Origin: Candidatus Omnitrophota bacterium
GTDB lineage: Bacteria; Omnitrophota; Gorgyraeia; Duberdicusellales; 4484-171
Direction: 5' to 3'
NCBI GenBank assembly: GCA_043815185.1
Contig: JBDRJF010000013.1
Coordinates: forward strand, 1-52,678
Length of the DNA stretch: 52,678 bases
Below are positions 17,960 to 50,295 of this stretch, in pieces. Under the pieces are notes generated by a model. It was not told the DNA's origin and ran no database searches. It saw only the letters and a list, made by a program, of their open reading frames with translations. A program made the position numbers and the translations under genes. Within the stretch, counting starts at the first letter, position 1; each line of letters opens with the position of its first letter.

Positions 17960-17960
17960 C

Positions 17961-19822: not shown

Positions 19823-19835
19823 CCTTTTTCTCCTC

Positions 19836-19945
19836 AATGAGACTACACGTTTTTTCGAAGAAAAAACGTGTAGTCGAATTGATCCCGGCGAGCGTGTCAA
19901 AATTATAGAATAGAATTTTGACACATCCCCCGTGAGCCGGGATAC
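19836..19945. repeat. Double-hairpin intergenic element, copy 3
   Basis: AATGA-[GACTACACGTTTTTT..AAAAAACGTGTAGTC]-GAATTGATCCCGG-[TGTCAAAATT..AATTTTGACA]-CCGGGATAC. It supplies the last codons and the stop of cobU. Confidence 0.75.
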
Positions 19946-33922: not shown

Positions 33923-33935
33923 AGGTTTCCCATTA

Positions 33936-35435
33936 TTAAAAGTAAAGGTCACGCGCACCCTGCTCAATCCGCTGATAATACTCTTTAAGTTTTGGGTAAA
34001 TTTTTGGTATTGAAAACTTTATTTCTTCTAACTCTCTTTTGATAACCTTCTCACCTTCCTTTTGAGTTTGGCCAGTAGCAAAATCATCCAGCCATTCTCT
34101 GAAGGTAAGTACCGCATTTAACTTGCAAAACTTACCCTCTTCTCCAGTCTTTAAAAGTTCCATGATGCACTTTCCGGTTCTTCCGCAGCGGTAACCAGCC
34201 GTACAAAAAGAAGTAATATATCCTAAAGAAGCTAATTCTCTTATTAATTCGTCTAAACTGCGGGTATCGCCTAAGAAAAATTGCTGTCGTTTACCTTCCT
34301 GCTCAGCATAACGGTCACTGTAAGCACCGATTCCAATCCGGGTCGAAGCATCAGTTTGAGTACAGCCCAGGGGGATAGTTTCTCTTCGTATTCGGGCACT
34401 TTCCCGAGCAGTAAGGATCATTCCGGCATGGGGTATGGCTAATCTGATAACTATAATTAACTTTTTAAAATCCTGATCACTAACCTTATAGCCTGACTCC
34501 TGGGTAAAGGGTGTATTAGCCGCTGGTTCAAGCCGCGGGAAAGAAATTGTATGAGGGCCTACACCAAAACGGTTCTCCAGCTCCCGGGAATGCAGGAGAA
34601 GGCTTAAGACTTCGAACCGCCAATCGTAAAGACCGAAAAGAACACCAATACCGACATCATCAATTCCAGCCTCAAAAGCCCGATGCATACAATATAATCT
34701 CCACTTATAATCTGCCTTAAGCGTCCCTTGAGGATGAGCCTTTTGGTAGGTCTTGGGATGATAAGTCTCCTGAAACACCTGATAAGTACCGATGCCGGCT
34801 TGCTTAAGCTGCTTAAGATCTTTGCTCGACAAAGGAGCAGCATTAACATTAACCCGACGAATCTGGCCATAGCCTCTTTTAGTCTTAGCCTTTACTCCAT
34901 AAATTGTTTCAATAGTTGAAGCCATATAATCTATATCGGTCCGGGGATGTTCTCCGTAAACTACGATTAGCCGTTTATGTCCGATTTGACCAGCTAAAAC
35001 CTCGGTTTCTCTCCTTACCTCATCCTGGCTAAGGACTTTTCTTTGAACCTGTAAATTATCTCTTCGAAATCCGCAGTAAAGACAATTATTTAGGCAAAGA
35101 TTGCCTAGGTATAAAGGGGCAAAGGTAACAATTCGATTATCGTAGACCTTTTTTTTAACTTCCCCGGCAACTTCAGCCATCTGATCCCAAAGCTCTTTAT
35201 CTTCAACTCTCAGCAGGGTTGCCGTCTGGTCCAGGGTCAAAGTCTGGATAGCTAAGGACTTAGCCAAGATATCCTTAACCTCCCGGTAAGAAGCTTTAGA
35301 TTTAGAGGCTAAAGCCCGATTAATTGATTCCTGATCGATAAAGTGTCGGCCCTTATTCAGGTATTTCTCTACCTCAGCTGGTTTTATCTGATTTCCAGCC
35401 CAGGAATCTAAAGTGTTGGTCTTAATCAGCATCAA
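33936..35435 (-). CDS. hydG: [FeFe]-hydrogenase maturase HydG (radical SAM tyrosine lyase)
   Basis: RIVTFAPLY..N.CLNNCLYC, IRRVNVN, GIGTYQVFQETY, GIDDVGIG, GVGPHTISFPR and C-terminal SFCTAGYRC-X19-CKLNA (auxiliary-cluster domain, absent from ThiH). Confidence 0.92.
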   Translation of the reverse strand: MMLIKTNTLDSWAGNQIKPAEVEKYLNKGRHFIDQESINRALASKSKASYREVKDILAKSLAIQTLTLDQTATLLRVEDKELWDQMAEVAGEVKKKVYDNRIVTFAPLYLGNLCLNNCLYCGFRRDNLQVQRKVLSQDEVRRETEVLAGQIGHKRLIVVYGEHPRTDIDYMASTIETIYGVKAKTKRGYGQIRRVNVNAAPLSSKDLKQLKQAGIGTYQVFQETYHPKTYQKAHPQGTLKADYKWRLYCMHRAFEAGIDDVGIGVLFGLYDWRFEVLSLLLHSRELENRFGVGPHTISFPRLEPAANTPFTQESGYKVSDQDFKKLIIVIRLAIPHAGMILTARESARIRRETIPLGCTQTDASTRIGIGAYSDRYAEQEGKRQQFFLGDTRSLDELIRELASLGYITSFCTAGYRCGRTGKCIMELLKTGEEGKFCKLNAVLTFREWLDDFATGQTQKEGEKVIKRELEEIKFSIPKIYPKLKEYYQRIEQGARDLYF

Positions 35436-35436
35436 A

Positions 35437-36090
35437 TCACCCGTTTTTCCCCTGTCTTCGCTTAGTAAGAAAAATTAAACTCTCCAGCTCAGAGGCCATA
35501 TCTACGTTCGATACCGATACAGTTTGAGAAACTTTCAGCACAATCGGTGCAAAATTCAAGATACCTTTTATCCCTGATGAAACCAGCCCATCGGCAACCT
35601 TTTGAGCAACTTCCGGCGGTGTAGAAATGATGGCAATTTTAATATTTTCTTTTCTGATAATGCGCTGCATCTGTTTTACATGACGAATCTTTACTCCTTG
35701 CCTGACTCTTCTAATTTTATCTTCATCAATATCAAAGGCCAGGGTTATTTTAAGCTTGAATTTGGAAAACCCCTCAAAGCCTAAAAGAGCGCTTCCCAAT
35801 CTTCCTATGCCTACTATAGCAATTCTCCGTTCTTGATCCAGGCCTAAGATACTTTCAATCTCCTGGGCTAACCTTTCAACATTATAACCGACACCCCTCT
35901 TGCCAAAACCACCGAAGAAAGAAAGATCTTTTCTGAACTGCTCCGGACTAACATTAAGAAATTTGGTTAGTTTATCGGAAGATATAACATCAGTATTCTG
36001 ATCTTTTAATCGCTTTAAATTCCTCAGATAGATACTGAGACGCCTAATCGTCTCTAAGGAAAAACTATTTTTTTCATTTCGTTTCTTCAT
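35437..36090 (-). CDS. rex: Redox-sensing transcriptional repressor Rex
   Basis: TIRRLSIYLR, RKDLSFFGGFGKRGVGY, VGIGRLG and GILNFAP motifs. Confidence 0.95.
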   Translation of the reverse strand: MKKRNEKNSFSLETIRRLSIYLRNLKRLKDQNTDVISSDKLTKFLNVSPEQFRKDLSFFGGFGKRGVGYNVERLAQEIESILGLDQERRIAIVGIGRLGSALLGFEGFSKFKLKITLAFDIDEDKIRRVRQGVKIRHVKQMQRIIRKENIKIAIISTPPEVAQKVADGLVSSGIKGILNFAPIVLKVSQTVSVSNVDMASELESLIFLTKRRQGKNG

Positions 36091-37399
36091 CAAGTAATTC
36101 CCCACTGACTCCTAAATCTGTAGGCGCCCGGCCTAAAGATTTAAGTAAAGCTATTGCCTGATCAATTTGCTTATCTATTAACTCCTCATTATAAGCCTTA
36201 TTAGGATAAATCTCATAAAGCTTTCGATACTTAACTGGTGTAACATTAAGCATCAAAGAGTTAGCACCTGAAAGCAACCCCTTCTCGCGAGTAGTCGGTT
36301 CTAAAGTCTCTAGGGCTGTAGTTACTAAGATTTTAGCCCGCTCAGGATCAATGAACCGGGCCAGGGCTAAGGCCTTTAAAACCAGCCCTTCTGGCGGTGG
36401 TACAAGATTCACCAAAGGTGTCTTAGGGTGCGGCAAAAATGGTCCAAAAGAATACATTTCAGCACCTAGTTCTTTTGTCAAATTAATGTCATTTACAATA
36501 TCCTCATTGCTTTGCCCTGGCAAACCGATAAGTGCCCCAGTCATAATTAGATAGCCTGATGATGAAGCCTTCCTAATATGCTCTAATCTAGTTTCCAGTT
36601 TCCTTCCCGGGTGAAGACGAGCATAAATATCTGGATTAGAGCTCTCAAAACGCATGAGTAGAGCTCTTGCCCCGGCACTATAGAGTTTTTCTAATCCCTC
36701 TAATCCTACCTCGCCAAAACTAATACAGATTAATACCGGAACCTTTTCTTTAATTTTTTTTATAGTTGCAGCTAACTCATCAACGCTATATCCGGAATCT
36801 TCTCCACTCTGTAAAACTAAAGCTTGAAAACCATATTTTTCTACTGCTTCAACAGCAGTTTCAATAATTTCCTCCCGACTCATCCGGTAACGCGCAAGGC
36901 CCCTATTGTCAGTTGATATTCCACAATAAGTACATTGTTGCTGGCAATGATTTGAGATTTCAATTATTCCGTGGATACAACAAGAGTTTTTATGGTATTT
37001 TTGTCGTAAGAAGTTTGCTGATTTATAAAGAAGTTGGCAAGACTGCTGACTATCTAAATCAAGTAAGTACAACAACTCATCTTTCTTTAAGGGTATGTTC
37101 TCTAGGGCCTTATCTAAAATAAAACGTAGTCTCTTATCGCTGCCTTCATCCAAATCTAGGCGGGAAAGGCGCAGGTCAACGTCTTGGAGCTCGAAAAATA
37201 ACTCCTGCCAGGCTGATAAAACATCTTTGGCTTCATCAGCAGATACTTTTTTTATTACAAATCCGCCTTGAGCGCAGATATAATCGCCAACAGCAATATC
37301 GTAAAACTCATTAATTGCTTTTTTCTCTTCACCAAAGTAGTCTACTAAGACTTGTCTTCCCTTTACCTCTTTTACTTTTCCGGGAATTGCGTAACACAT
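36074..37399 (-). CDS. Fusion: N-terminal HypC/HupF domain + HydE-like radical SAM domain
   Basis: Residues 1-~65 (MCYAIPGKV..V......VDYFG......VGDY....GFVI..V..DEA) match the HypC pattern. The remainder has GIIEISNHCQQQCTYC, VLQSGED, RFES.NPDIY..LHP, IGLPGQ, GPFLPHPKTPL, TTALETL, GANSLMLN.TP and Y..YEIYPNK, matching the HydE/PylB pattern. It is a single continuous ORF. Confidence 0.88.
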   Translation of the reverse strand: MCYAIPGKVKEVKGRQVLVDYFGEEKKAINEFYDIAVGDYICAQGGFVIKKVSADEAKDVLSAWQELFFELQDVDLRLSRLDLDEGSDKRLRFILDKALENIPLKKDELLYLLDLDSQQSCQLLYKSANFLRQKYHKNSCCIHGIIEISNHCQQQCTYCGISTDNRGLARYRMSREEIIETAVEAVEKYGFQALVLQSGEDSGYSVDELAATIKKIKEKVPVLICISFGEVGLEGLEKLYSAGARALLMRFESSNPDIYARLHPGRKLETRLEHIRKASSSGYLIMTGALIGLPGQSNEDIVNDINLTKELGAEMYSFGPFLPHPKTPLVNLVPPPEGLVLKALALARFIDPERAKILVTTALETLEPTTREKGLLSGANSLMLNVTPVKYRKLYEIYPNKAYNEELIDKQIDQAIALLKSLGRAPTDLGVSGELLDEETK

Positions 37400-37491
37400 A
37401 ATAAGTAGATAATTTATGGAGCAAAGTGAACATAAATTATAGGCGTTAGCCGCCTACGAATTACCCCGAGGAAATCGAAGATTTCCCGGGA
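37400..37491. repeat. Double-hairpin intergenic element, copy 4
   Basis: AATAA-[GTAG ATAATTTATG..CATAAATTAT..CTAC]-GAATTACCCCG-[GGAAATC GAA GATTTCC]-CGGGA; abuts the ATG of the HypC-HydE gene. Confidence 0.6.
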
Positions 37492-37526
37492 CTAAGTCCC
37501 TGAAATTTTTCCGAAATTTCTAGGGG

Positions 37527-37638
37527 TCCCGAAACATCTAAATACTTAAAAAATTTCACAGAAATTTTTAAAGAATGTTTCGGGATGAATTCAACTACAG
37601 GCTTGCATTCGCTCCGCTCTGCAAACCTAAGTTTCATT
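37527..37638. repeat. Double-hairpin intergenic element, copy 5 (inverted relative to copy 4)
   Basis: TCCCGAAACAT...ATGTTTCGGGA-TGAATTC-[AACT..GG.TTGCA..TGCAA.CC..AGTT]-TCATT; overlaps the hypA stop. Confidence 0.7.
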
Positions 37639-37876
37639 CACAGTCAAAGGAAACAACTTCTATGCGCGTACTCGGAAAAAAAATAATCTCCAGCTTCGCA
37701 TCTTTAAGGATAGTATTCTTAGCCAGAAGTGCAAAAGTCTGGCGAAATGAATCTTCCTTAACGCCGGTAAGCTCTCCGATCTTAAGCCGAACCCGGGTTA
37801 CGGTTTTTGCTCCTTCTTCTTCAGCATGCTTAGCTATCCCTTTGATTATCGGCTCAATCAGATGAGTCTCATGCAT
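37634..37876 (-). CDS. hypA: Minimal HypA-like nickel chaperone lacking the zinc-finger domain
   Basis: MHE N-terminus, V.LKIGELTGV, ILKDAKLEI, then directly the terminal strand IEVVSFDCE. No CxxC motifs; 80 aa. Confidence 0.8.
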   Translation of the reverse strand: MHETHLIEPIIKGIAKHAEEEGAKTVTRVRLKIGELTGVKEDSFRQTFALLAKNTILKDAKLEIIFFPSTRIEVVSFDCE

Positions 37877-38330
37877 TAAATGACTCCCTAATCAATCTTG
37901 CGACTTCCCTTAAAGTCTGCCTCAGGCTGAGTGAAAGTTCAGACCCTAACTCGATTGTTTTCGGCTGGACCCCAAACATATAAATATCAGCCTCGGTCTC
38001 CTTAGTTAAACACTCCATAAACATTGCCGGGGATATGTCATGGGTAGTAAATCCGCACTTTACGATATCTTCTTCTTCTAAAATCTCATACTCCCCGGGA
38101 TTTCTTCCTAAATACACAGCATCAATGATTAAAACCGTATCGGGCTTTTCCTTAATAATCTTACCGATATAATTCTCCGGTGCCGACCCAGCATCTATGC
38201 AAACTGCTCTGGTTTCATCCTTTATCTTGTTAATAAGGGCTGGTCCAAAACCATCGTCGCCGCGAATAATATTACCGATGCCAACAATAACCACCTTTCC
38301 TTTGAGTATATCTTTCAATTTGTTTTGCAT
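37869..38330 (-). CDS. hycI: Hydrogenase maturation endopeptidase, HycI type
   Basis: VGIGN.IRGDDGFG, APEN, IIDA, TTH and GVQP motifs. Confidence 0.9.
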   Translation of the reverse strand: MQNKLKDILKGKVVIVGIGNIIRGDDGFGPALINKIKDETRAVCIDAGSAPENYIGKIIKEKPDTVLIIDAVYLGRNPGEYEILEEEDIVKCGFTTHDISPAMFMECLTKETEADIYMFGVQPKTIELGSELSLSLRQTLREVARLIRESFNA

Positions 38331-38335
38331 TGTGA

Positions 38336-38950
38336 TTAAGTAGTCAGAGTAGTTTCCCGGCGGCAGCGGGCGCAAAGAATCTTTATCCGGTCGGAACGTC
38401 CCTGATCCTTTAGCACTGATATGATATTCTCATCGACTATACCCAGATTTTTTAGGCCGGTGAGATAAAGTGTGGGGCTGGAAAAACTGAGCTCACCGAG
38501 TCTCTGATTAATCCATCTCAGGTGGTCAGAACAGGCAATCGTCTCGCCGCAAATTTCACAAAGCTGCAGTTTCTTCTCTATCCGCTCTAAAGCTTCACTG
38601 CGGTCAAAAAAGGAAAGTTCCCAATCGCCGGATAGCTTGATACCTTGATTATCGGCAATACAAGCAGCCTGGCACTGGCCGCAGAATATGCAGGTATCAG
38701 TATAGTGGATCATAACCCTGCGGGGATTATCCTTATCATTAATGATATCGATATTTCCAATTGCTTCTACCGGACAAACCTCTTTACAAGCCAGGCAGCC
38801 AACACACTTATCCTGATCAAATTTAGGTTGACCCCGGAAATTAGGGTGAGGTTGGTGTGACTCAACAGGAAACTTTGAAGTATACGGCCCTTTTATAAGG
38901 GCTTTTATTGCTTCAATTAATTCTCTGATCTTTGGTAAAGGTATTTTCAT
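38336..38950 (-). CDS. 2x[4Fe-4S] subunit (NuoI/HycF/MbhN-like) with extra C-terminal Cys pairs
   Basis: YTSKFP, FRGQP, CVGCLACKEVCP, CIFCGQCQAAC, CEIC and CARC motifs. Confidence 0.88.
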   Translation of the reverse strand: MKIPLPKIRELIEAIKALIKGPYTSKFPVESHQPHPNFRGQPKFDQDKCVGCLACKEVCPVEAIGNIDIINDKDNPRRVMIHYTDTCIFCGQCQAACIADNQGIKLSGDWELSFFDRSEALERIEKKLQLCEICGETIACSDHLRWINQRLGELSFSSPTLYLTGLKNLGIVDENIISVLKDQGRSDRIKILCARCRRETTLTT

Positions 38951-38955
38951 TCCTG

Positions 38956-38994
38956 TTTTAAGTTTTTAGTTTTGCGCTTTTAGCTTTTCACTTT
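38956..38994. repeat. Degenerate heptamer repeat tract
   Basis: TTTTAAG TTTTTAG TTTTGCG CTTTTAG CTTTTCA; a similar tract lies at about 14953-14982. Confidence 0.5.
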
Positions 38995-39330
38995 CTAGAC
39001 TTCTCCCTCTTTATCTTCTAAATACTTATCGACAACGCTCTCCTTGCTAAGCTTTACCCCTGCCCTATGCGCACCTCTGGCTATAGCATGGGCAGCCACT
39101 GGAGAGGTTAATAGCAAAAATACCATACATAAAAGTGCTTTCATTCCGGCAGCTGTAGGGCCGACGATAAGAAATGTCCCGAATAGAATACTGCAGGTGC
39201 CTAAAGTAACACACTTTGTTGCTGCCTGCAGACGATTATATACATCAGGAAGACGGACCAGCCCTAAAGCACCAAAAAGATCAAAAGCCAATCCTAAACC
39301 AATAAATATCAAACCGATAATACTACTCAT
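38995..39330 (-). CDS. mnhG: Mrp/Mnh antiporter subunit G
   Basis: GLVRLPDVYNRLQAATK..TLG and TSPVAAHAIARGA motifs. Confidence 0.92.
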   Translation of the reverse strand: MSSIIGLIFIGLGLAFDLFGALGLVRLPDVYNRLQAATKCVTLGTCSILFGTFLIVGPTAAGMKALLCMVFLLLTSPVAAHAIARGAHRAGVKLSKESVVDKYLEDKEGEV

Positions 39331-39346
39331 CGAACCCTCTTCCTTA

Positions 39347-39408
39347 AATCAGACCACAATTTATGGAACGAAATGAGCATAAATTGTACGGTCGAATTTA
39401 TCCTGGAT
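39347..39408. repeat. Double-hairpin intergenic element, copy 6 (second hairpin reduced)
   Basis: AATCA-[GACC ACAATTTATG..CATAAATTGT AC GGTC]-GAATTTATCC-T-GGAT; the inner hairpin is similar to that of copy 4. Confidence 0.65.
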
Positions 39409-39411
39409 CTT

Positions 39412-39780
39412 CTATTCATCAAAGCCCCTTCCTTCCAAATACTTTGATAAAGCTAAAGTACTTATAAAACTCTGCAAAGCCCAGGCTATTCCGATATCAA
39501 TATACCAAGATCTTCCGGTAGAAATAGTCAGTATTGCGCACAAACCAGCAATCATGATACCCAAAATATCAATTGCCACTATCCGGTCAGCACCAGTCGG
39601 CCCCCTATAAATACGATAGAGACATAAAAAACAAGCTAAAATAAGTATGTAGAGAGCTCTGCCTACGAACCCGACAAAGGGGAGGTCGGGATAAAAAAGA
39701 AAAGGAAACGGCCGGATTATTATTAAACCTACAATCCCTCCTAAAACAATTGCGCCAATAAACCATTTGATTCTCTTCAT
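39412..39780 (-). CDS. mnhF: Mrp/Mnh antiporter subunit F (extra N-terminal helix)
   Basis: RIYRGPTGADRIVAID and FISTLALSKYL motifs. Confidence 0.88.
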   Translation of the reverse strand: MKRIKWFIGAIVLGGIVGLIIIRPFPFLFYPDLPFVGFVGRALYILILACFLCLYRIYRGPTGADRIVAIDILGIMIAGLCAILTISTGRSWYIDIGIAWALQSFISTLALSKYLEGRGFDE

Positions 39781-39790
39781 CTTAACCTCT

Positions 39791-40288
39791 CTAATCAAAA
39801 ATCTTTTTTAGTATTTTTTCAAAGCGTTGGACAATGATTTTTGTAGCACTTTCAGTATCTTTTGCCCTTACATTAATCCAATGTATATATAAAACACCAT
39901 TATTCTTATCGATATCGACACTCATAGTGCCGGGAGTCAAGGTTATAGAATTAGCTAAAAAAGTAAGAGCAGTGTCACTCTTGAGAATTGTCTTTACTTT
40001 AACAATTCCCGGTTTTATCGGTAAATCCGGATGCAATACCCGATAAGCAACATCGATATTTGCTTTAATAAGCTCCCAGGAAAATACCGGTAAATAATGG
40101 GCAACAAAATACCAGTACCGCCAAGGATGTTTCAAAACATGGGGACGGGTAACAAATAAATCTCCGGTTAGAATAGCTACAAAAGCTGCCACAAAAATGC
40201 CAACTATAAGATGTTGGGAATCCGGAACCCAATTTAGGAGACACCAGCCTAAAAATGCTACCAAGAATAGTATTATCCTGCTTCTCAT
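39791..40288 (-). CDS. mnhE: Mrp/Mnh antiporter subunit E
   Basis: KANIDVA, PGIV, LANSITLTPGT and LYIHWI motifs. Confidence 0.92.
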   Translation of the reverse strand: MRSRIILFLVAFLGWCLLNWVPDSQHLIVGIFVAAFVAILTGDLFVTRPHVLKHPWRYWYFVAHYLPVFSWELIKANIDVAYRVLHPDLPIKPGIVKVKTILKSDTALTFLANSITLTPGTMSVDIDKNNGVLYIHWINVRAKDTESATKIIVQRFEKILKKIFD

Positions 40289-40291
40289 TTT

Positions 40292-41794
40292 TTACCTCAC
40301 TGCCTCAAAAACCGTTGGGCCGTATTCTACACCTTTGACAAGCACATCTACAGCTGGCTTTAAGAAAACTTGCCTTAAACCCGGCAGAAGTAAAACTCCT
40401 CCAACAATGCAGATAAGAGCTAAAGCCACCATAGCCAAAACCATGAAAAGAGGAGCTTCTTTTATCGTGCTCCATTTTTCTCTTAGCTTACCAAAGAAAC
40501 CATATTTCATAACCTTAGTAAATGAAGCTAAGGTCAATATGCTAGCTAAAACTGCCCAAAAAGCATAACCAAAATGACCAGCGCTTACAGCAGCAATTAT
40601 AATCAACAGCTTACTCCAAAATCCATTAAAAGGCGGGATACCGGCAATAGACATTGAAGCAGTAAGGCTGGTAGTACTAGTTACCGGCATTCTCTCCCTT
40701 AATCCACCCATCTTTTGTAAATCTCGGGTTCCTGTAGAATACTCCACTGCTCCGGAATTTAAAAACAAGAGCGACTTAAATATTGAGTGGTTAAAGAGGT
40801 GAAATAAACCCCCTAATATACCTAAAGGTGTGCCCAAGCCAATACCTAAAACAACATAACCGATTTGGCTTATTGAATGATATGCTAATAGGCGTTTGAA
40901 ATCCCACTGACCAATCGCCAAAAATACCCCGATTACCATCGAGACTGCCCCTAAGAACATTAACAAAGAAGAAATTTTTAAACTCAATCCAATTACATTA
41001 AAGAATATTCTGCAAATAGTGTATACACCTAGAGACTTTATCAGAACTCCTGAGAGCATAGCTGATATCGGAGCCGGTGCCGAAGGATGAGCATCAGGAA
41101 GCCAAGCATGAAAAGGAACCAGTGCGGCTTTTAATCCAAAACCCATGATAAATAAAACGCTCACCATAAGACCAACATTGCCAAGGCCCTTTTCGGCTAA
41201 GATTACTGCCATATCAGCCATATTTAATGTTGAAGTATAGCTATACAAGAATACAATTCCGATAAGAATAAAAAGCGAACCAACAGTACTCATAACTGCA
41301 TATTTGAAAGCAGCTTCTAGCTCATGGCGTTCGGTTCCAAAAGCAACTAAAGCATAACTTGCTACCGAAGCAATCTCTAAGAATACAAACAAATTAAAGA
41401 TATCACCGGTGATAATTACCCCGTTCATTCCGGCTAGCATCAAAAGGAATAAAGTATAAAACTTCCACTTCGAAGTATACTTCTCCATGTAATTTATTGC
41501 ATAGATAGAAATAATAAAAGCAACTAGGTTTACAGTAACAAGCATAAATGAAGTTAAACCATCCAGGACCAGGGCTATGCCTACCGGCGGCTTCCAATGA
41601 CCAACACTGTAAACTATAGTTCCGTAGGAATTAGATAGCTTTAGGGCAAAGGCAGAAAGACAAAGCAATGTAAGAGTGGTAAGATTTCCTAGGAAATCAG
41701 GAAACCATTTTATTTTTTTACCGACAATAGAGACTAAAAAGGCTCCAGCTAACGATATAGCTACAAAAAGAGGTATTATGTTAGCCCCCGGCAT
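40292..41794 (-). CDS. mnhD: Mrp/Mnh antiporter subunit D (MbhH-like)
   Basis: DIFNLFVFLEI, KAALVPFHAWLPDAH, KRLLAYHSISQIG and GIPPFNGFWSK motifs. Confidence 0.9.
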   Translation of the reverse strand: MPGANIIPLFVAISLAGAFLVSIVGKKIKWFPDFLGNLTTLTLLCLSAFALKLSNSYGTIVYSVGHWKPPVGIALVLDGLTSFMLVTVNLVAFIISIYAINYMEKYTSKWKFYTLFLLMLAGMNGVIITGDIFNLFVFLEIASVASYALVAFGTERHELEAAFKYAVMSTVGSLFILIGIVFLYSYTSTLNMADMAVILAEKGLGNVGLMVSVLFIMGFGLKAALVPFHAWLPDAHPSAPAPISAMLSGVLIKSLGVYTICRIFFNVIGLSLKISSLLMFLGAVSMVIGVFLAIGQWDFKRLLAYHSISQIGYVVLGIGLGTPLGILGGLFHLFNHSIFKSLLFLNSGAVEYSTGTRDLQKMGGLRERMPVTSTTSLTASMSIAGIPPFNGFWSKLLIIIAAVSAGHFGYAFWAVLASILTLASFTKVMKYGFFGKLREKWSTIKEAPLFMVLAMVALALICIVGGVLLLPGLRQVFLKPAVDVLVKGVEYGPTVFEAVR

Positions 41795-42138
41795 TATCCT
41801 TTCAACTCCTTAATTTTAGTAATATCAAAAGTACCGTATTTTTCATAAATTCTCATAGCAATAGCGACTAATAAAGCTGTGGTAGCTAAACCAATAACAA
41901 TAGCTGTAAGCACCAAAGCATGCGGTAAGGGATCGACCATAGTAGAACCGGAAATATTCACTTGAGATGAGAATATTGGAGCTCTACCGCCAATACGATA
42001 GGCGACCAAAATAAAAAAGAGGTTAACCGCATACTCGCATATAATAATCCCAACAATAATCTTAATAATATTACGTTTTCGTAAGATACAATATAGCCCT
42101 ACGCAAAAAAGTATTAAACAAAGAAAATATACTATCAC
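41794..42138 (-). CDS. mnhC: Mrp/Mnh antiporter subunit C
   Basis: NIIKI and DPLPHALVLTAIVIG motifs. Confidence 0.92.
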   Translation of the reverse strand: MIVYFLCLILFCVGLYCILRKRNIIKIIVGIIICEYAVNLFFILVAYRIGGRAPIFSSQVNISGSTMVDPLPHALVLTAIVIGLATTALLVAIAMRIYEKYGTFDITKIKELKG

Positions 42139-42587
42139 TTCTTCTCCTTTGACTCTAAATTTAATAAGACCAAGGCAACGAATATTGCAAACAGCCCGGC
42201 ACCGACTTTAAGACTAATAGCTATATTGCAAAGAGGGATAATCCCGGCACTAAAAAGTTCATAAGGTTTACCTTTGGCCATAAAATTCAAAAAGAAATAT
42301 CCTCCGGTAAATCCTAAGAGGGCTATACCTAAAAACATTATCGCCCCGGCATTTTCAAAAAATGATACCACCGCCTTAGGCAACTTCTTCAAAGCAGTCT
42401 CCTTGCCGTAAGCTAACATAAGATGGATAAAGGAAAGAGCAATAATAACCCCTCCGGCAAATCCTCCACCAGGAGATAAATGGCCGTGGGTAAGAATATA
42501 AATACCGTAGAGCAGTATCAAGCCTACTGTAAGACGAGTAATTGTCTTAACAATTACTGACATACCTTTATTATGCTCTCGACTCAT
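42135..42587 (-). CDS. mnhB: Mrp/Mnh antiporter subunit B (MbhF-like)
   Basis: GHLSPGGGFAGG motif. Confidence 0.9.
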   Translation of the reverse strand: MSREHNKGMSVIVKTITRLTVGLILLYGIYILTHGHLSPGGGFAGGVIIALSFIHLMLAYGKETALKKLPKAVVSFFENAGAIMFLGIALLGFTGGYFFLNFMAKGKPYELFSAGIIPLCNIAISLKVGAGLFAIFVALVLLNLESKEKK

Positions 42588-43117
42588 CCAGCCTCATCTT
42601 GTTTTTTTCTGCCGATTTTACGCACAATAGCCAAGACTCCGATTACAGCAGTAAATAGTACTGTAGCCTCGCCTAAAGTGTCATAGGCTCTAAAATCTAA
42701 TATTACCGAAGAAACAACATTAGCTGCGCCAGTCTGGCTTAAACCATCAACAAGATATGTTTTGGCAACCTTCATAATTGGATAACCAAAACCAGGCAGC
42801 TCTCTTAAAGCCTTTATGGCTACAAATAAAAATATGGCGATAAAGGTGAGAGTAATAAGTGTATTTAGAAACCACCTGCCAGTAGTAGCAAAAGGTAAAT
42901 CTTTCTTCAAAGTCGCCCGAATCAAAATAATCAAACACAATATCTCAACTACTAGCTGGGTAATTGCTACATCCGGTGCTTTTAAAATTAAAAAAACCAT
43001 CGAAAGTGCTATACCTACTGCACCAACGGTTACCACCGAAGAAAGAAGGTCTTTTACTTCAATAGCAATTACCGCACCGATAATCATAAATATTAGAAGA
43101 AGGTATAGTTCAATCAT
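42584..43117 (-). CDS. MbhD+MbhE-like subunit (MrpA C-terminal part)
   Basis: APDVAITQ and NVVSSVILDFRAYDTLGE motifs; start placed at MIELYLL (43117). Confidence 0.88.
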   Translation of the reverse strand: MIELYLLLIFMIIGAVIAIEVKDLLSSVVTVGAVGIALSMVFLILKAPDVAITQLVVEILCLIILIRATLKKDLPFATTGRWFLNTLITLTFIAIFLFVAIKALRELPGFGYPIMKVAKTYLVDGLSQTGAANVVSSVILDFRAYDTLGEATVLFTAVIGVLAIVRKIGRKKQDEAG

Positions 43118-43122
43118 AACAC

Positions 43123-44778
43123 CTACCGCAATAGAATATAGAATATTATCGCCATACCTAAAAGGCACCAAGCCATATAGGTAGGAAGTATACCGTTGTG
43201 AACATAACGCAATACCTTATTAAAACCAAAAGTTATCTTCGAGCCAACTTCATAGACATCAAATACTTTCTTCTCGGCTAATTTATATATACCTTTAAGG
43301 AGGCCGATCTCTTGAATCGTATGATAGAAGTCAATACCGGAAACTCGCATCTCAGGATGTTTTCCTAAAGACTCCCCTCCGATGAAACTTTCGGTCTCTC
43401 TTGTTTTGGTTACCTTACCGAGAAGATAAATTACCATACCAATAATAATTCCGACAGCTATTAAGACCGTAGCTAAGCCAGCATCCCAAACGCCAACGAA
43501 TCCAATTTCCCCTCCTAAACTAGGGAAGACAAGCAGCTTAAGCGGAACTGCCAGAGCAAAGACTCCAAAAATAATACAAAGTATAGCCAGAAAAACCTGA
43601 GGAATCCACATGCTCGGGCTAACATCTCTTAAAACCTTACCGGCAACTCCCGATTCAAAAGAAGGCTGGCCTAAAAATACAGCATGAATTAACTTCATAA
43701 AGCTAGCCAGAGTAAGAGCACTACCAAACATAGCCGCAACTAACCATACTATCCAAAGATATCCTCCGCCTTTAGCAGTTTCGATTATGCCCTGATAAAT
43801 CATCCACTTCGAAGCAAAACCATTAAAAGGCGGGACTCCCGAAATTGCTAAAGACGCTATAAGAAAAGTAATAAATGTGACTGGCATAGCTTTAGCTAAA
43901 CCGCCTAATTTCCCTAAATCGGTAGTTCCAGCTTTTTTCTCTACTGAACCACCAGAGAAGAATAAACAGGATTTATAAATTGCATGGTTTAACATGTGAA
44001 ATAGGCCGCCGGCAATTCCAATCGGATTTCCGGTTCCGATACCTAAGACCATATATCCAACCTGGCTAACAGCATGGTATCCTAAAAGTCTCTTCAAATC
44101 GTGTTGGATTAGAGCCATCATAACTGCGGCTACAATAGTAATGCTGCCGACTACCATCAAAAAGGTATTCATGCCGCTATCCATCTGAAAAATATTTAAA
44201 GACAATCTGGCTAAGAAGTAGATACCGAGAAGCTTATCTAAAGAAGCCGGCAAGAAAGCAGTAACTGGTGCCGGTCCATCTTCAGCAACATCAGGAACCC
44301 AGGTATGAAAAGGCATAGCTCCGGCCTTAGCAAAAGCACCAGCTGCCAAACACAAATAAGCTAAGACTGCTAAGTGAGTATTCAAAGATATACTCATCTT
44401 ATCAATCCGGAATTCTTTAGTTAATACCCAAATAAAAGCTACTCCCAAAAGCATTAAAGCGTCTGTTCCGCCAATTATGATAAAAGCTTTCTTTGCTGTA
44501 GCTTGAGTCTGGGCTTTTTTCCCAAAGCCAATTAAAAGATACAGAAGCATACCTAAGAAGCCCCAGAAGACCACAAACAGAATAATATTGTTGGAAAAAA
44601 CAGCACCTAAAGAAGCCAGGAAAGTAAAAACTATATATAGGTAATAACGAATTAACTCCCTGCCTCTGTTCATAAAACCTACTGAATAGATAATTGTCAG
44701 TAAGGAGAATATTCCAATAAATATTCCTACAAATATAGAGAGGTTGTCGAATTTAAAAAATTGTTCAATCAAGCTCAT
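43123..44778 (-). CDS. Antiporter-like membrane subunit (NuoL/MrpA/HyfB family)
   Basis: AKAGAMPFHTWVPD, KRLLGYHAVSQVG and GVPPFNGFASK motifs. Confidence 0.9.
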   Translation of the reverse strand: MSLIEQFFKFDNLSIFVGIFIGIFSLLTIIYSVGFMNRGRELIRYYLYIVFTFLASLGAVFSNNIILFVVFWGFLGMLLYLLIGFGKKAQTQATAKKAFIIIGGTDALMLLGVAFIWVLTKEFRIDKMSISLNTHLAVLAYLCLAAGAFAKAGAMPFHTWVPDVAEDGPAPVTAFLPASLDKLLGIYFLARLSLNIFQMDSGMNTFLMVVGSITIVAAVMMALIQHDLKRLLGYHAVSQVGYMVLGIGTGNPIGIAGGLFHMLNHAIYKSCLFFSGGSVEKKAGTTDLGKLGGLAKAMPVTFITFLIASLAISGVPPFNGFASKWMIYQGIIETAKGGGYLWIVWLVAAMFGSALTLASFMKLIHAVFLGQPSFESGVAGKVLRDVSPSMWIPQVFLAILCIIFGVFALAVPLKLLVFPSLGGEIGFVGVWDAGLATVLIAVGIIIGMVIYLLGKVTKTRETESFIGGESLGKHPEMRVSGIDFYHTIQEIGLLKGIYKLAEKKVFDVYEVGSKITFGFNKVLRYVHNGILPTYMAWCLLGMAIIFYILLR

Positions 44779-45959
44779 TTAATACCTAATTTACGCTTTA
44801 TCTTGGCGGTCTTTTCTTGCGAAAGCCGTATTAGATCTTCTCCATTATAAATCTTTTTACCCTTAGTATTGCGTACAGCCATTCTCTCGGTACAACAATA
44901 ACAAGGATCAATAGCCGCAAAGATTATAGTAGCGTCAGATATAGTCTGCCCAACAACAGTTGATTTATAAGTTGGTAAATTCATAAAAGTTGGTGCTCTG
45001 ACCTTATGGCGAGCCGGCCGGTTAGTGCCGTCACTCTTTACATAATGAAAACACTCTCCTCTTGGCGCCTCAATCTGACCAATACCTTCTCCGGGAGGAA
45101 TACTCTTAATTTTAGCATCGATTTCACCTTTGGGAAGATTCAGAAGACAGTGCTTTATTATTTTTATAGACTCAAAAGTCTCTAGAACTCTTACTACTAA
45201 CTTATCAAAGACATCGCCATTGGAAGTTACAATCATATCCCAATCTAACTCTTGGTAAGCTCCATACGGACAATCTTTTCGTAAGTCCTTAGCTACACCG
45301 GATGCTCTTGAAGTTGGGCCTAAGGCCGAATAGCTTATGGCGTCTTCTTTAGTAAGCACGCCTACCCCTTTAGTCCGGGCATGTAATACCGGATCATCGA
45401 TAATTGCTTTTTTAAGCATTGTCAATGTCGGTATGATTGAATCTATTTTTTTTATAACTCCTGATATATCTTCTGCCTTTATGTCTCTTCTTACTCCTCC
45501 GGGTTTAAACATAGCATAGTTGTTTCTATTTCCTGATAAAATTTCCATCGCATCTAGTATTTCTTCTCTTAACTTCCAGGCCCACATGTATACTGTGTTA
45601 TATCCTAAGAAGTGTCCGGCTAAACCCAACCAGAGAAGATGGGAGTGTATTCTCTCACCTTCAGCAATTATGGTTCGAATATACTTAGCCCGCTCAGGCA
45701 CCGCTATTGAAATAATATCCTCAACTGCTCTAGTATAAGCAAAAGGATGGCTGGTAGAGCAAATACCACAAATTCTCTCAACCAAAAAAGTCGATTGGTC
45801 AAAGGTTTTGCGCTCGGAAAGTTTTTCTATGCCCCGGTGGTTATAACCAACCTCAACATCAACAGCAACAATTTTTTCGCCCTCAACAGTAAGGGTAAAA
45901 AATTCCGGCTCTTCTTGTAAAGGATGGTAAGGTCCTATCGGTACTATTGTTCTTGCCAT
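44775..45959 (-). CDS. Group 4 [NiFe]-hydrogenase large subunit
   Basis: GPYHP..EEP, HRGIE, ERICGICS (L1), ERIHSH, EAPRGE, RAPT and DPCYCCTER (L2), plus a C-terminal extension. Confidence 0.93.
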   Translation of the reverse strand: MARTIVPIGPYHPLQEEPEFFTLTVEGEKIVAVDVEVGYNHRGIEKLSERKTFDQSTFLVERICGICSTSHPFAYTRAVEDIISIAVPERAKYIRTIIAEGERIHSHLLWLGLAGHFLGYNTVYMWAWKLREEILDAMEILSGNRNNYAMFKPGGVRRDIKAEDISGVIKKIDSIIPTLTMLKKAIIDDPVLHARTKGVGVLTKEDAISYSALGPTSRASGVAKDLRKDCPYGAYQELDWDMIVTSNGDVFDKLVVRVLETFESIKIIKHCLLNLPKGEIDAKIKSIPPGEGIGQIEAPRGECFHYVKSDGTNRPARHKVRAPTFMNLPTYKSTVVGQTISDATIIFAAIDPCYCCTERMAVRNTKGKKIYNGEDLIRLSQEKTAKIKRKLGIK

Positions 45960-46432
45960 TATACTCCTCTATCTCTAATTGCTTTTTCGTCCCACTCTTT
46001 ATAATCTCTACGTAAAGGATAAGAATCTTTCGGCCACTGATCAGGGAGAAGAAGCTTCCTTAAGTCAGGATGGCCTTTAAACTTTATTCCTAGCATCTCA
46101 AAAATTTCCCGCTCAATCCAATTTGCAGCTTCAAATGAAGGAGTGAGCGAATCTATCTCTAGTTTTGACTTATCTAGTTTAACTCTTAGGGAAATTACTA
46201 GATTTATATCGTCAAAGGTAAAATGATATAAAATCTCCATATGAGAACGAGTATCTACGCCAGAAGCAATACTAAATCTAGCTTTTAGCTCTTTAAAGAT
46301 ATAATTTGCAATCTTAACAAGCGAAGAAGCCTTAATCTCGATATATACTCGCGTAGAAGACTTATCAATAAAATCAATGATGTCTTCTTTAAATTTTTGG
46401 TTAATATCTTTTAAAACGTCACTTCGATACAT
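45959..46432 (-). CDS. NuoC/MbhK-like subunit
   Basis: AANWIEREIFEMLGIKFKGHP and YPLR motifs. Confidence 0.92.
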   Translation of the reverse strand: MYRSDVLKDINQKFKEDIIDFIDKSSTRVYIEIKASSLVKIANYIFKELKARFSIASGVDTRSHMEILYHFTFDDINLVISLRVKLDKSKLEIDSLTPSFEAANWIEREIFEMLGIKFKGHPDLRKLLLPDQWPKDSYPLRRDYKEWDEKAIRDRGV

Positions 46433-46872
46433 TATTTTCCCTTCTTCTTGATTGTACCTTTCACCTTTTCAATTAACTTAACTACACCGGCGATGATCGC
46501 TTCTGGTTTAGGCGGACATCCCGGTATGTAAACATCTACCGGTATAATCTTATCTATTGGAACCGGACAATTGTAGCTATGGATAAACATACCTCGAGAT
46601 AAAGAACATTCTCCGATTGCCACTACCAAACAAGGTTTAGGCACCTGGTCATACAATCTCTTTACCCTCTCCATTGATTTCCGATTACCAGAACCAGTAA
46701 CCAAAAGCACATCAGCATGCCTTATGCTTCCGGCTAAAATCATCCCGAACCTCTCAATATCAAACCTAGGGGTAAGACAATCTAGTATTTCAATATCACA
46801 ATTATTACAACTTCCGGTAGCAAGATGAAAAACCCAAGGTGATTTCAACAATGCTTTTAATGTTACACTCAT
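46432..46872 (-). CDS. Group 4 hydrogenase small subunit (NuoB/MbhJ-like)
   Basis: GSCNNCDIE, RHADVLLVTG, AIGEC and PGCPP motifs. Confidence 0.93.
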   Translation of the reverse strand: MSVTLKALLKSPWVFHLATGSCNNCDIEILDCLTPRFDIERFGMILAGSIRHADVLLVTGSGNRKSMERVKRLYDQVPKPCLVVAIGECSLSRGMFIHSYNCPVPIDKIIPVDVYIPGCPPKPEAIIAGVVKLIEKVKGTIKKKGK

Positions 46873-46873: not shown

Positions 46874-47794
46874 TTACTTCCCGTTTAAAGCTAGAACAAC
46901 TGCCAACACGGCAATTATAGTCATTGGCCCCCAGAAAAACCGCATTGCCTGGTCAATTCTTACCCGAGGGTTGGTATTTCGAATAACTGTTATAAGGGCA
47001 ACCAGCCCAACATACTTTAGTATCCCATAAAGTAAGTGTATCCCGTCAAACCTCAAACCGCCCATAAGGAGAATCATTAAAAAGAACGGTAAGACAAATA
47101 AAAGCATATTTTTAGTGAGCCTATAGATAGCTAATCCTGTTCCTGAATATTCGATTAGCGGACCACCGACTATCTCAGTTTCAGCTTCAGGAATATCAAA
47201 GGGGACTAAAGCTAATTTTGCCTGCACACACATTATAAGTACAATAAAAGCTAATATCCCTGATAAATTTCCCAAGATTACTCCCTGTTGAGCCTGAAGA
47301 GTTATGATTTCTCCTAAGCGTATAGAAAAGTTAGATTTTATAATCGGAACTAATATAGCTAGGACAAAAGGAAGTTCATAACTTAAGATCAGTTTCATCT
47401 CCCGAGATGCACCCAAGCTAGCCAAGGGGTTACGAGAAGCAAAACCGCCAATAATAATACTCATTGAAGGAATAGTTAATAAATACAAAACTACTATTAA
47501 ATCGCCAAGAAAAGTCTTACCGGGATGGATATTGTTTAACCACAAAAGAGTAGCTACTAAAATTACGCTAGCAAGCCCAATAACCGGGGCCATAAGAAAG
47601 GTCAACTTTGATGAACCAACCGGTACAAGGTTCTCTTTCCCAAGAAGCTTTACAATATCTATTAAAGGCTGCAAAATCGGCGGCCCTACTCGATATTGGA
47701 CCCGGGCAGTAACCTTACGATCTATCCAACTAGCCAACAACCCGATAATTGCTGTCGCCAAAAAACCAAATACTATAAAATAGAATAAATACAT
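46874..47794 (-). CDS. NuoH/HycD/MbhM-like membrane anchor
   Basis: RKVTARVQYRVGPP, PFDIPEAETE and NPR.RIDQ motifs. Confidence 0.92.
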   Translation of the reverse strand: MYLFYFIVFGFLATAIIGLLASWIDRKVTARVQYRVGPPILQPLIDIVKLLGKENLVPVGSSKLTFLMAPVIGLASVILVATLLWLNNIHPGKTFLGDLIVVLYLLTIPSMSIIIGGFASRNPLASLGASREMKLILSYELPFVLAILVPIIKSNFSIRLGEIITLQAQQGVILGNLSGILAFIVLIMCVQAKLALVPFDIPEAETEIVGGPLIEYSGTGLAIYRLTKNMLLFVLPFFLMILLMGGLRFDGIHLLYGILKYVGLVALITVIRNTNPRVRIDQAMRFFWGPMTIIAVLAVVLALNGK

Positions 47795-48360
47795 TATACT
47801 TTGTCTCTATCCCAGTGAGTCGAATGAACTATCAAATTATCACCGACTAAAAATATATTTTCATCAAGCTCAATGTCGCCTCGTTTTAAACTTAAGGCAC
47901 CGTAGCTGCAGGTCTTTATACATAAAGGTTCCTGGTCAAGATCCCTGCGGTCTAAACAAAAGTCACAATTATGGATTAAGTAAGGGACATTCTCAGGGTA
48001 TATCGCTCCATAAGGACAGGCATGAGAACAGGATTTACAACTTACACAACGCAGATTATGCCGGATGAGAAACTTATCTTTATCTTGCTGTTGTTCTAAG
48101 GCTTCAAAGGGGCAGGCTCCGACACAATGCGGTTCTTGGCAGCGGCGGCAGACTAAAGCATAGGTAGCTAGCTCAGCCACCGAGATAATACCGTTGTTGC
48201 CCGGATTCTGGGAATGATAAAAATAACTGCACTCAATCAGACAGCCCTGGCATTGACCAGAAGCGCAGACGTCCAGATCGATAAACAGCCGCTTGTCTCC
48301 GCCAGCCCCAGCTTCCAAACTTAATTTACCTTGGTGTAGTTGTTCAGCGCTTGAGCTCAT
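47794..48360 (-). CDS. Polyferredoxin-like electron-transfer subunit (HycB/CooF-like)
   Basis: CRRCQEPHCVGACP, CVSCKSCSHACP and CDFC...CIKTC motifs. Confidence 0.85.
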   Translation of the reverse strand: MSSSAEQLHQGKLSLEAGAGGDKRLFIDLDVCASGQCQGCLIECSYFYHSQNPGNNGIISVAELATYALVCRRCQEPHCVGACPFEALEQQQDKDKFLIRHNLRCVSCKSCSHACPYGAIYPENVPYLIHNCDFCLDRRDLDQEPLCIKTCSYGALSLKRGDIELDENIFLVGDNLIVHSTHWDRDKV

Positions 48361-48361
48361 T

Positions 48362-49186
48362 TTAGTCCCAAATTTCGTGAAAGTTCTTTATCTTATCGTA
48401 AGTAAAGACCGGACCGTCTTTGCAAGCATAGTAAGTCCCAATCCGGCAATGCCCGCACTTGCCAATACCACAAGACATGTTCTTCTCCATTGAAAGGTAA
48501 ATATTCTCGTCTTTAAACCCCGACTCTAGCAGCTTAAAAGTAACGAATTTCATCATTATCGGCGGCCCGCAAACAACAGCAACTCCTTTTTCACAATCCA
48601 TAGCTAAACCATCCAGGATTGTGGTTACCAGCCCCACGTGGCCCTTCCAATTCTCATCGCCCTTATCTACGGTAAGCCCTAAGTCTAAATCATCCCGCTT
48701 TGCCCACTGGCTAACTTCACCCTTATAGACTAACTCCTGAGGGTTTCGGCAGCCACCTCTGAACAATAATTTTTTAATTTCCCCTCTTATTGTAAAGAGG
48801 GTATACATAAGACTGCGTAAAGGAGCGAAACCAACCCCACCGCCGATAACTAAAACTTCCTGGTCTTTAAACTTATCCAGAGGGTAACCTACACCTAAAG
48901 GACCCCTTACTCCGATAATAGTGCCTTTCCTAAGTTCATGGATCTTATCAGTAACCTTACCAACCTTCATTACAGTTATTTCCATTGTATCTTTTATTGA
49001 TGGCCTTGAAGAAGGAGTAAAAGGAGCTTCGCCTACACCAGGGATAGTCACTTCAATGAATTGACCAGTAGCAAAACTTAGTGCTTCCTTAGGTTTAAAT
49101 TTTATAGTCTTTATGGTCGGCGTCTCCTCAACAACCTCAAGAACCTCAGCTTCAACCGGTTGATAAGGATTTTTGCACTTAGACAT
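48362..49186 (-). CDS. FAD/NAD(P)-binding subunit (sulfhydrogenase gamma / AsrB-like)
   Basis: GQF, GEAPF, RGPLG, GGGVGFAP, VCGPP and MSCGIGKCGHC...C motifs. Confidence 0.9.
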   Translation of the reverse strand: MSKCKNPYQPVEAEVLEVVEETPTIKTIKFKPKEALSFATGQFIEVTIPGVGEAPFTPSSRPSIKDTMEITVMKVGKVTDKIHELRKGTIIGVRGPLGVGYPLDKFKDQEVLVIGGGVGFAPLRSLMYTLFTIRGEIKKLLFRGGCRNPQELVYKGEVSQWAKRDDLDLGLTVDKGDENWKGHVGLVTTILDGLAMDCEKGVAVVCGPPIMMKFVTFKLLESGFKDENIYLSMEKNMSCGIGKCGHCRIGTYYACKDGPVFTYDKIKNFHEIWD

Positions 49187-50277: not shown

Positions 50278-50295
50278 TTGTGAATAAAATCACAA
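50278..50295. promoter_or_regulatory. Rex operator (Rex box)
   Basis: TTGTGAATAAAATCACAA has one mismatch to the TTGTGAA-N4-TTCACAA consensus; rex lies in the downstream gene string. Confidence 0.8.

Follow-up and report, generated by a model that had tools for sequence, protein, structure and literature searches.

Contig JBDRJF010000013.1 of a Candidatus Omnitrophota genome (assembly GCA_043815185.1) was analyzed over its full length of 52,678 nucleotides, hereafter the window. It carries the operon of an Mbh/Mrp-type group 4 [NiFe]-hydrogenase with maturation genes at its 3' end, and one of these genes encodes HypC fused to a divergent barrel of the HydE family (HydE'), in the company of rex and hydG. 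HydG and HypC-HydE' probably replace HypCDEF and thereby form a HypDEF-independent [NiFe] maturation module that is built from [FeFe]-type parts. A bypass of HypDEF had been put forward from the letters of the window alone (the sequence-only reading); comparative genomics lends it support, as do an in-place exchange with hypFCDE in a related genome and single-chain HypC-HydE'-HydG fusions. In the HypCDEF pathway, HypC and HypD form the scaffold and the cyanide is derived from carbamoyl phosphate via HypF and HypE. We lean, if only slightly, towards a fuller reading of the module, in which tyrosine provides both CO and CN via HydG to a class of anaerobic group 3 and group 4 [NiFe] hydrogenases, in a third, chimeric pathway. 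HydE' would be processor and scaffold at once, with a CO/CN count that is possibly different, Cys141 and His143 of its barrel would act with Cys2 of the HypC domain as the HypD-HypC iron site, and the pathway would extend over Omnitrophota and genomes that are labeled as Saganbacteria/Margulisiibacteriota, Spirochaetota, Auribacterota and Nitrospirae.

The genes concerned are co-oriented on the minus strand, in an operon that runs from 50219 down to 33936 (Table 1). The sequence-only reading had described a group 4 operon ending with hycI, a minimal hypA, hypC::hydE, rex and hydG, and all five were found at the positions it gave, in the same orientation. The other genes it listed stand as well, but the start of the operon had to be moved upstream to 50219, where AsrA-, AsrB- and CooF-like genes precede the part it had delimited. 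It had also reported that hypB, hypD, hypE, hypF, hydF and hydA are missing from the 52 kb, and this now holds for the whole source genome (1.076 Mb in 31 contigs, of which the window is one entire contig; 87.14% complete). Profile searches of this 87%-complete genome gave no match for HypD, HypB or the catalytic domain of HydA (Fe_hyd_lg_C). The best scores for HypE (41 bits, cut-off 251.6) and HypF (24 bits, cut-off 466) came from weak paralogue matches, and the HydF profile found generic GTPases alone (best score 90 bits, cut-off 325). A group 4 large subunit with its four Ni/Fe cysteines, HycI and HypA are present in the same genome. Since HypE and HypF are missing together with HypD, a new source of CN and CO is needed.

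The distribution of the fusion was determined in three sets of genomes. In 41 relatives, picked by kinship and independently of the fusion, it was found in 12, all of which also encode a [NiFe] large subunit and a HydG scoring over the cut-off, and none of which has HypD or a HypF over its cut-off. HydF and HydA were present in one of these 12 carriers (G036), which carries a canonical hydF-E-G-A cluster apart from the fusion. A large subunit is also encoded by ten fusion-free relatives, nine of which possess both HypD and HypF. A sample of 401 Omnitrophota genomes was drawn evenly over the phylum, 340 of them of high quality, and here the fusion type was defined by E ≤ 1e-90 (in the 41 relatives, fusions gave E ≤ 6e-97 and canonical HydE E ≥ 2e-68). 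Sixty-one genomes had the fusion type and 132 had HypD (130 over the cut-off), and the number with both was zero against about 20 expected from independence; the Fisher p value of 3e-12 for this exclusion is indicative and overstated, because related genomes are not independent. There was likewise no overlap in the high-quality subset (fusion 49, HypD 127) or within single families, some of which comprise genomes of both kinds (in f8, for example, fusion 21 and HypD 25 of 60). Twelve of the 61 matches span the HydE' part alone, and a fused HypC was confirmed for two (G036, G040).

Finally, a species-level collection with one genome per species was scanned with two family motifs. It yielded 388 candidate stretches, 359 of which were confirmed as fusions; 80 of the stretches were kept for neighborhood counts and 50 of these genomes for searches of gene content. 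Among the 50 wider carriers, HypD was matched in a single genome (G062), by a fragment of 132 bits that is below the cut-off, and HypF exceeded its cut-off in the same genome only. The anticorrelation with hypDEF that the sequence-only reading anticipated is borne out for HypD in all three sets and for HypF in the relatives and the wider carriers, and hydF and hydA do not consistently accompany the fusion either, HydA being absent from 29 of the 50 wider carriers and present in 21. Six spirochaete genomes without HypD gave matches of 125-133 bits to the C-terminal half of HypF, which we read as other carbamoyltransferases. In the closed chromosomes of two carriers (G042, G067), HypD, HypE, HypF, HydF and HydA were all not found. 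The 80 loci are labeled as Omnitrophota, Saganbacteria/WOR-1/Margulisiibacteriota, Spirochaetota/Brevinematales, Auribacterota, Atribacterota and others; not all of these labels are beyond doubt, and near-identical relatives of the window are filed as Planctomycetia. That the fusion is an assembly artefact or unique to this assembly can be ruled out by the confirmed stretches and by its occurrence as a single open reading frame (ORF) of 392-443 amino acids in 12 of 12 related carriers.

The genes around the fusion connect it to [NiFe] enzymes. Of the 80 loci, 54 have HycI near it, 47 HydG, 46 HypA and 41 Rex, and in 41 loci rex separates the fusion from hydG. In 61 loci, a large subunit that has both Cys motifs lies within 10 kb, in 60 of these 61 on the strand of the fusion. 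Co-occurrence with group 4 large subunits was seen, and it is not exclusive to group 4, as at least three classes are represented: 11 are Mbh-like as in the window, about 45 are group-3b-like and are preceded by beta and gamma subunits that resemble AsrA and AsrB, and two are Ech-like without a tail. Because it stands beside several classes of large subunit, the fusion tracks [NiFe] enzymes generally and not one type. No other conserved gene of unknown kind accompanied the module in the 80 loci.

A particularly direct comparison was provided by G032, a genome of the same order as that of the window. Its orthologous operon has a small subunit and a large subunit that are 84 and 83% identical to those of the window, membrane subunits with 72 to 80%, a NuoI with 77% and a mini-hypA with 71% identity. 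At the slot that is taken by the fusion, rex and hydG in the window, hycI and mini-hypA are followed in G032 by a short hypF, hypC, hypD and hypE, all confirmed by NCBIfam models. This exchange of cassettes behind the same hydrogenase may be regarded as the closest thing, at the level of genomes, to a natural complementation experiment. In addition, a closed chromosome encodes HypC-HydE'-HydG as a single ORF of 921 amino acids, and 16 clusters of such triple fusions were found, with identities to the query of 68-71%, 46-48% or 40-41%; some of them are named from Nitrospirae bins. On a metagenome contig, one of them comes directly after [NiFe] structural genes, in a row that consists of an AsrB-like gene, a small subunit, a large subunit of 439 amino acids and a protein binding cyclic nucleoside monophosphate (cNMP). 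The same long-protein search brought up fusions of HydE with HydF (P0138, P0139). Between the large subunit and the maturase, the triple-fusion lineage has a Crp-like protein that binds cNMP (L138:2935-3609), at the place of hycI and hypA in the window.

The fusion protein consists of a HypC domain (residues 1-76), a helical linker and a HydE-like radical S-adenosylmethionine (SAM) TIM barrel (residues about 94-430). Residues 1-64 matched PF01455 with 49.8 bits (cut-off 28.5), and the HypC part scored 47.7 bits against TIGR00074, just below the cut-off of 48. HypC aligns over residues 1-67, and the domain aligns with the solved HypC structures 2z1c, 3vyr, 3d3r and 2ot2. For the barrel, HydE is by far the best family: residues 96-405 matched TIGR03956 with 236.5 bits, below the equivalog cut-off of 254.6, the second family being PylB with 139.8 bits. 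Residues 16-345 of the Thermotoga maritima HydE chain align with residues 94-427 of the fusion (E 2e-64). The HydE fold is thus full-length, and the radical SAM cysteines of the CX3CX2C motif (C152, C156, C159) are invariant, as are C2, Q44, C141 and H143. An AlphaFold2 (AF2) model showed the alternating strands and helices of the barrel with a predicted local distance difference test score (pLDDT) of 91.6 and a predicted template modeling score (pTM) of 0.91, and this confidence suggests that the HypC and HydE' domains are docked in a fixed arrangement. Mean column identity across the fusions of 81 species was 65%, and by this measure of conservation the gene is under strong constraint. In public records, the protein is named HypC family, radical SAM protein, biotin synthase or HydE.

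To compare individual residues, 97 fused proteins (81 fusions and 16 triple fusions) were set against 18 canonical HydE proteins. The numbering of T. maritima HydE was transferred by hand via the alignment, and all eight named residues fell on the expected residue type. In canonical HydE, the cavity around the Fe(I) dimer is formed by R54, T134 and R155, and the iron is held by the methionines M224 and M291, as described in the available part of PMC11826987. The position of R54 is His in 97/97 fused proteins and Arg in 18/18 canonical ones, that of R155 is Gly or Ala in 97/97 versus Arg in 18/18, and that of T134 is Phe, Cys, Leu or Ile in at least 93/97 versus Thr in 16/18. Two residues ahead of the new histidine, His143, a cysteine (Cys141) is present in 97/97 fused and in 0/18 canonical proteins. 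Both methionines are conserved, the equivalent of M224 (M315) in 96/97 and that of M291 (M383) in 97/97 fused proteins, and so is K309. In the HypC domain, Cys2 is found in 97/97. The conserved histidine of the last HypC strand, which we take to be His51 of Escherichia coli HypC, is present in the four solved HypCs and in 5/5 free HypCs of HypD-bearing relatives; its position is occupied by Gln44 in 81/81 fusions and 13/16 triple fusions. In a quick IQ-TREE phylogeny, the fused HydE' formed its own clade apart from canonical HydE (Shimodaira-Hasegawa-like approximate likelihood ratio test, SH-aLRT, 97), and two deep triple fusions branched separately from it. By residue content and phylogeny, HydE' is the specialized part of the module.

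HydG itself is ordinary for the lineage. The protein of the window has the radical SAM motif and shares 60-68% of its residues with the HydGs that relatives encode in canonical hydE-G-F-A clusters, and the pattern of its C-terminal auxiliary-cluster cysteines is that of most of these canonical-cluster HydGs; in a FastTree phylogeny, fusion-linked and canonical HydGs were interleaved. The idea of a specialized HydG paralogue was ruled out by the same Cys spacing, the same identities and the interleaved tree. The textbook C-terminal motif of HydG is CX2CX22C. Omnitrophota HydGs deviate from it by a Gly for the second Cys and additional cysteines nearby, and this deviant spacing is seen in most canonical-cluster copies (the HydGs in L105-L120) and in many fusion-linked copies.

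Mini-HypA starts with MHE, has no CxxC motif and covers positions 1-68 of a model of 116 positions; as far as its primary structure tells, it is the Ni-binding N-terminal domain alone, without the Zn finger. A frameshifted or truncated hypA was ruled out, as the frame has no continuation in the downstream spacer and the short form is recurrent: 51 of 60 HypA-like ORFs next to fusions or in relatives have the form of 80-81 amino acids. Regarding the minimal hypA, the sequence-only reading was right about its presence, but its specificity to the fusion system did not hold. G032 carries a mini-HypA alongside HypFCDE, and the protein was therefore rejected as a component of the new system. The G032 gene is located at L155:4893-5147.

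A possible course of maturation may be outlined as follows. An ordinary, unspecialized HydG would cleave tyrosine to yield an Fe-carbonyl-cyanide-cysteine synthon, which the HydE' barrel would receive and, by the kind of radical SAM reaction that HydE carries out, relieve of the carbon skeleton of its cysteine. The remodeled cavity would then hold a mononuclear Fe(CO)x(CN)y, and no di-iron product would be released to HydF; with the cyanide-holding arginines and the threonine lost and an invariant Cys-x-His gained, the cavity might trap one iron and not two paired ones. From there the iron unit would move to Cys2 of the attached HypC domain, and HypC would hand it to the large-subunit precursor. 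Mini-HypA would insert nickel (HypB was not found in the genome), and HycI would trim the C-terminal tail. We infer the chemical steps, the direction in which the unit is transferred and the number of ligands on the iron, and with them the order from HydG via HydE' and HypC to the large subunit, which the sequence-only reading had proposed. By analogy to the HydE-HydF fusions, HypC may occupy the place of HydF.

Several points weigh against this replacement of HypCDEF. All evidence for it is genomic, most of the genomes are metagenome bins, and the carriers are related and not independent of each other. The chief difficulty is a mismatch of ligands. The [NiFe] site has one CO and two CN. The HydG product, in contrast, has two CO and one CN per iron according to the accessible text of PMC11826987, and the module holds no obvious answer to this mismatch. 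Since both methionines that hold Fe(I) are conserved, a di-iron product is possible. Furthermore, an [FeFe] hydrogenase is found besides the fusion in 22 of the 62 carriers (40 are without HydA), and the only HydG of G036 sits in its canonical cluster. G066 (L071) has the fusion, and HydG was not found in the search of its genome. G023 (89% complete) has an Mbh-type large subunit and HydG, and neither the fusion nor HypD was found in it. In G062, the genome with HypF and the HypD fragment, the fusion is on a contig of 3 kb (L067).

The ligand mismatch bears on two other explanations. HydG and the fusion could supply diatomic ligands alone (CO, for which an anaerobic source has long been sought, and/or CN), the iron being assembled on an unrecognized scaffold or on the large subunit itself. 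We consider this unlikely, though it deserves attention: the cyanide source HypE/HypF is missing along with HypD and HydG makes both CO and CN, and a synthon with 2 CO and 1 CN, as given in the consulted part of PMC11826987, misfits the [NiFe] site and favors transfer at the level of ligands. A mere supplier, however, needs no fusion to an iron chaperone, yet the fusion is kept in 97/97 members. The altered cavity residues surround the iron product, a Cys-x-His was gained, and the 80 loci revealed no further conserved gene of unknown kind. Alternatively, the module could mature the [NiFe] enzyme with a non-standard iron unit, such as Fe(CO)2(CN) instead of Fe(CN)2(CO). HydG equals the canonical-cluster HydGs in motif and phylogeny, so that its product is probably 2 CO/1 CN, and an obvious exchanger of CO for CN is lacking in the module. 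We nevertheless hold this to be quite improbable, as the large subunit shares its motifs and 83% of its residues with the one that HypCDEF serves in G032.

Two further explanations question the client. Fusion and HydG might serve an [FeFe] or another iron-carbonyl enzyme, while hyp genes in unassembled parts of the bins mature the [NiFe] enzyme. The source genome is 87% complete, HydA occurs in 22/62 carriers and the di-iron methionines are conserved, which would be in line with such a role; but HypD was found in 0/49 high-quality carriers compared with 127/340 high-quality genomes overall, the two closed chromosomes are without HypD, HypE, HypF, HydF and HydA, 40/62 carriers have no HydA, and the HypC domain and the location by hycI and hypA link the fusion to [NiFe] enzymes. 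This leaves it a very small probability. Smaller still is the probability that the large subunits are non-hydrogenases (complex-I- or Mbx-like) that require no Fe(CN)2CO, the maturation genes being relics. Group 4 large subunits do grade into non-hydrogenase relatives, and NuoD models were the best NCBIfam matches. Relics, however, would hardly agree with four metal-binding cysteines that are intact in 61 loci of several classes, with the retention of a cleavable tail, HycI and HypA, or with a mean column identity of 65% in the fusion over 81 species.

The proposed HypC-HydE'/HydG module can be compared with the known maturation systems. With HypCDEF it shares the client enzymes, the operon slot of hypFCDE in G032, a HypC domain with an N-terminal Cys, and the late steps by HypA and HycI. 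It differs in that HypD, HypE and HypF were not found in its carriers (with the exceptions counted above), in the Gln that replaces the HypC His and, as we infer, in tyrosine instead of carbamoyl phosphate as source of the ligands. In common with HydE/HydF/HydG it has a bona fide HydG, interleaved with the canonical ones, and an end-to-end HydE-fold barrel with conserved SAM cluster, M224, M291 and K309. Unlike that system, it lacks HydF and HydA in 40/62 carriers, and its HydE' scores below the equivalog cut-off, forms a separate clade, has R54, T134 and R155 replaced and has gained Cys-x-His. The algal HydEF is a HydE-HydF fusion protein. In such fusions (as in P0138 and P0139) a covalent link connects the HydE barrel with the carrier of its iron product, as in HypC-HydE'; here, however, the carrier is the [NiFe] chaperone HypC, which precedes the barrel at the N-terminus, and the iron is received by a hydrogenase of the other class. 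HypX, an aerobic source of CO for [NiFe] hydrogenases in the available part of PMC6802093, likewise draws on a separate metabolite to provide the iron of the [NiFe] site with a diatomic ligand by an accessory route. Whereas HypX, as described there, supplements HypCDEF and provides CO alone, the module would replace HypDEF and give CO and CN. The module is HypCDEF-like in place and client and HydEFG-like in its proposed chemistry, and a member of neither.

A search of the literature, restricted to main texts with supplements excluded, returned no description of a HypC-HydE fusion or of HydG-dependent [NiFe] maturation, and neither is mentioned in the accessible parts of PMC9431212, PMC11216029, PMC9324843, PMC6349859 and PMC12727194. 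The supplementary notes of PMC6349859 on Saganbacteria hydrogenase regions might mention these genes. The minimal set comprises three or four genes: mini-hypA, hycI, hypC::hydE' and hydG. As this compact set follows structural genes of several classes and never occurs with HypD, a HypDEF-free route is directly testable. If the route is real, the [NiFe] and [FeFe] hydrogenase families share a ligand-making enzyme, and the module is a natural bridge between both systems as well as a natural experiment on how the product of HydE is steered to one iron or to two. It would also offer a far smaller cassette for the recombinant production of [NiFe] hydrogenases. The inference of hydrogen metabolism from metagenomes would be altered, for hydrogenases may be discounted on account of absent hyp genes and hydE and hydG may be mistaken for markers of [FeFe] enzymes.

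Table 1. Features of the hydrogenase operon in the window, in order of transcription
Feature	Position	Strand	Basis or remark
Rex-operator-like inverted repeat	50278..50295		59 nt upstream of first operon gene; 1 mismatch to the presumed Rex-box consensus
AsrA-like Fe-S subunit, 346 aa, first operon gene	49179..50219	-	Pfam Fer4_22, E 6.6e-31
AsrB-like FAD/NAD(P)-binding Fe-S subunit, 274 aa	48362..49186	-	Pfam NAD_binding_1, DHODB_Fe-S_bind, FAD_binding_6
CooF-like polyferredoxin, 188 aa	47794..48360	-	Pfam Fer4_11, E 8.6e-16
NuoH/MbhM-like membrane subunit	46874..47794	-	Pfam NADHdh, E 3.8e-65
NuoB-like hydrogenase small subunit	46432..46872	-	Pfam Oxidored_q6, E 7.6e-28
NuoC-like subunit	45959..46432	-	Pfam Complex1_30kDa, E 9.7e-30
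Group 4 [NiFe]-hydrogenase large subunit, 394 aa	44775..45959	-	Pfam Complex1_49kDa and NiFeSe_Hases
Seven Mrp/Mbh-type membrane subunits (MbhH-like, MbhD/E, MnhB, NuoK-like, MnhD-like, MnhE, MrpF, MnhG)	38995..44778	-	Pfam Proton_antipo_M (x2), MbhD+MbhE, MnhB, Oxidored_q2, MNHE, MrpF_PhaF, PhaG_MnhG_YufB
NuoI/MbhN-like 2x[4Fe-4S] subunit	38336..38950	-	NF009053 (88 bits), TIGR01971, Pfam Fer4 families
HycI-type maturation endopeptidase	37869..38375	-	TIGR00072 108.6 bits (cut-off 47.45)
Mini-HypA, 80 aa	37634..37876	-	PF01155 59.2 bits, profile positions 1-67 of 112
Spacer between hypA and fusion gene, 234 nt, non-coding	37400..37633	-	No ORF of at least 60 aa on the coding strand
HypC::HydE' fusion, 441 aa	36074..37399	-	PF01455 and TIGR03956 matches
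Rex redox-sensing repressor	35437..36105	-	NF003995 252 bits (cut-off 126)
HydG tyrosine lyase, 499 aa	33936..35435	-	TIGR03955 452.3 bits (cut-off 312)

The large subunit of the window has both Cys pairs of the [NiFe] site (RxCGxC and DPCxxCxxR), followed by a C-terminal tail of about 35 amino acids. Together with the NuoB-like small subunit and the Mrp-type membrane subunits, these are the features of a group 4 Mbh enzyme, and H2 activity is predicted. HycI scored 106.6 bits against the more specific model TIGR00142 hycI (cut-off 119.1). The AsrA-, AsrB- and CooF-like genes (47794-50219) suggest that this membrane-bound group 4 enzyme is equipped with an input module linked to NAD(P)H. For Saganbacteria, a similar AsrA-type hydrogenase region, from which the name AsrA-like is taken, is described in the available part of PMC6349859.

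The rex gene shares 32 nt with the 3' end of the fusion gene. In a scan of the window, the repeat in front of the operon was the sole match with fewer than two mismatches to what we take to be the Rex-box consensus. Given this Rex-like repeat and the presence of rex inside the module, the hydrogenase and its maturases may form a unit under NADH/NAD+ control. The spacer between hypA and the fusion gene could contain an internal promoter or a regulatory RNA.

Three minor observations concern neighboring genes and HypF. An aldo/keto reductase gene (32963-33967) shares 32 nt with the 3' end of hydG, which it follows in 8/80 loci, all of them from close relatives. In related Omnitrophota with HypC, HypD and HypE, HypF was found in a form of only 358-405 amino acids (G030, G031, G037 and L155:3669-4766), which matches the C-terminal half of the model (positions of about 382-740) and is without the acylphosphatase, zinc-finger and YrdC parts. 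Elsewhere in the window (5652-20460), a TonB-dependent receptor, a FecCD-type permease, a CobT-like phosphoribosyltransferase and a radical SAM/SPASM protein are grouped, which is probably a cluster for the uptake and remodeling of corrinoids.

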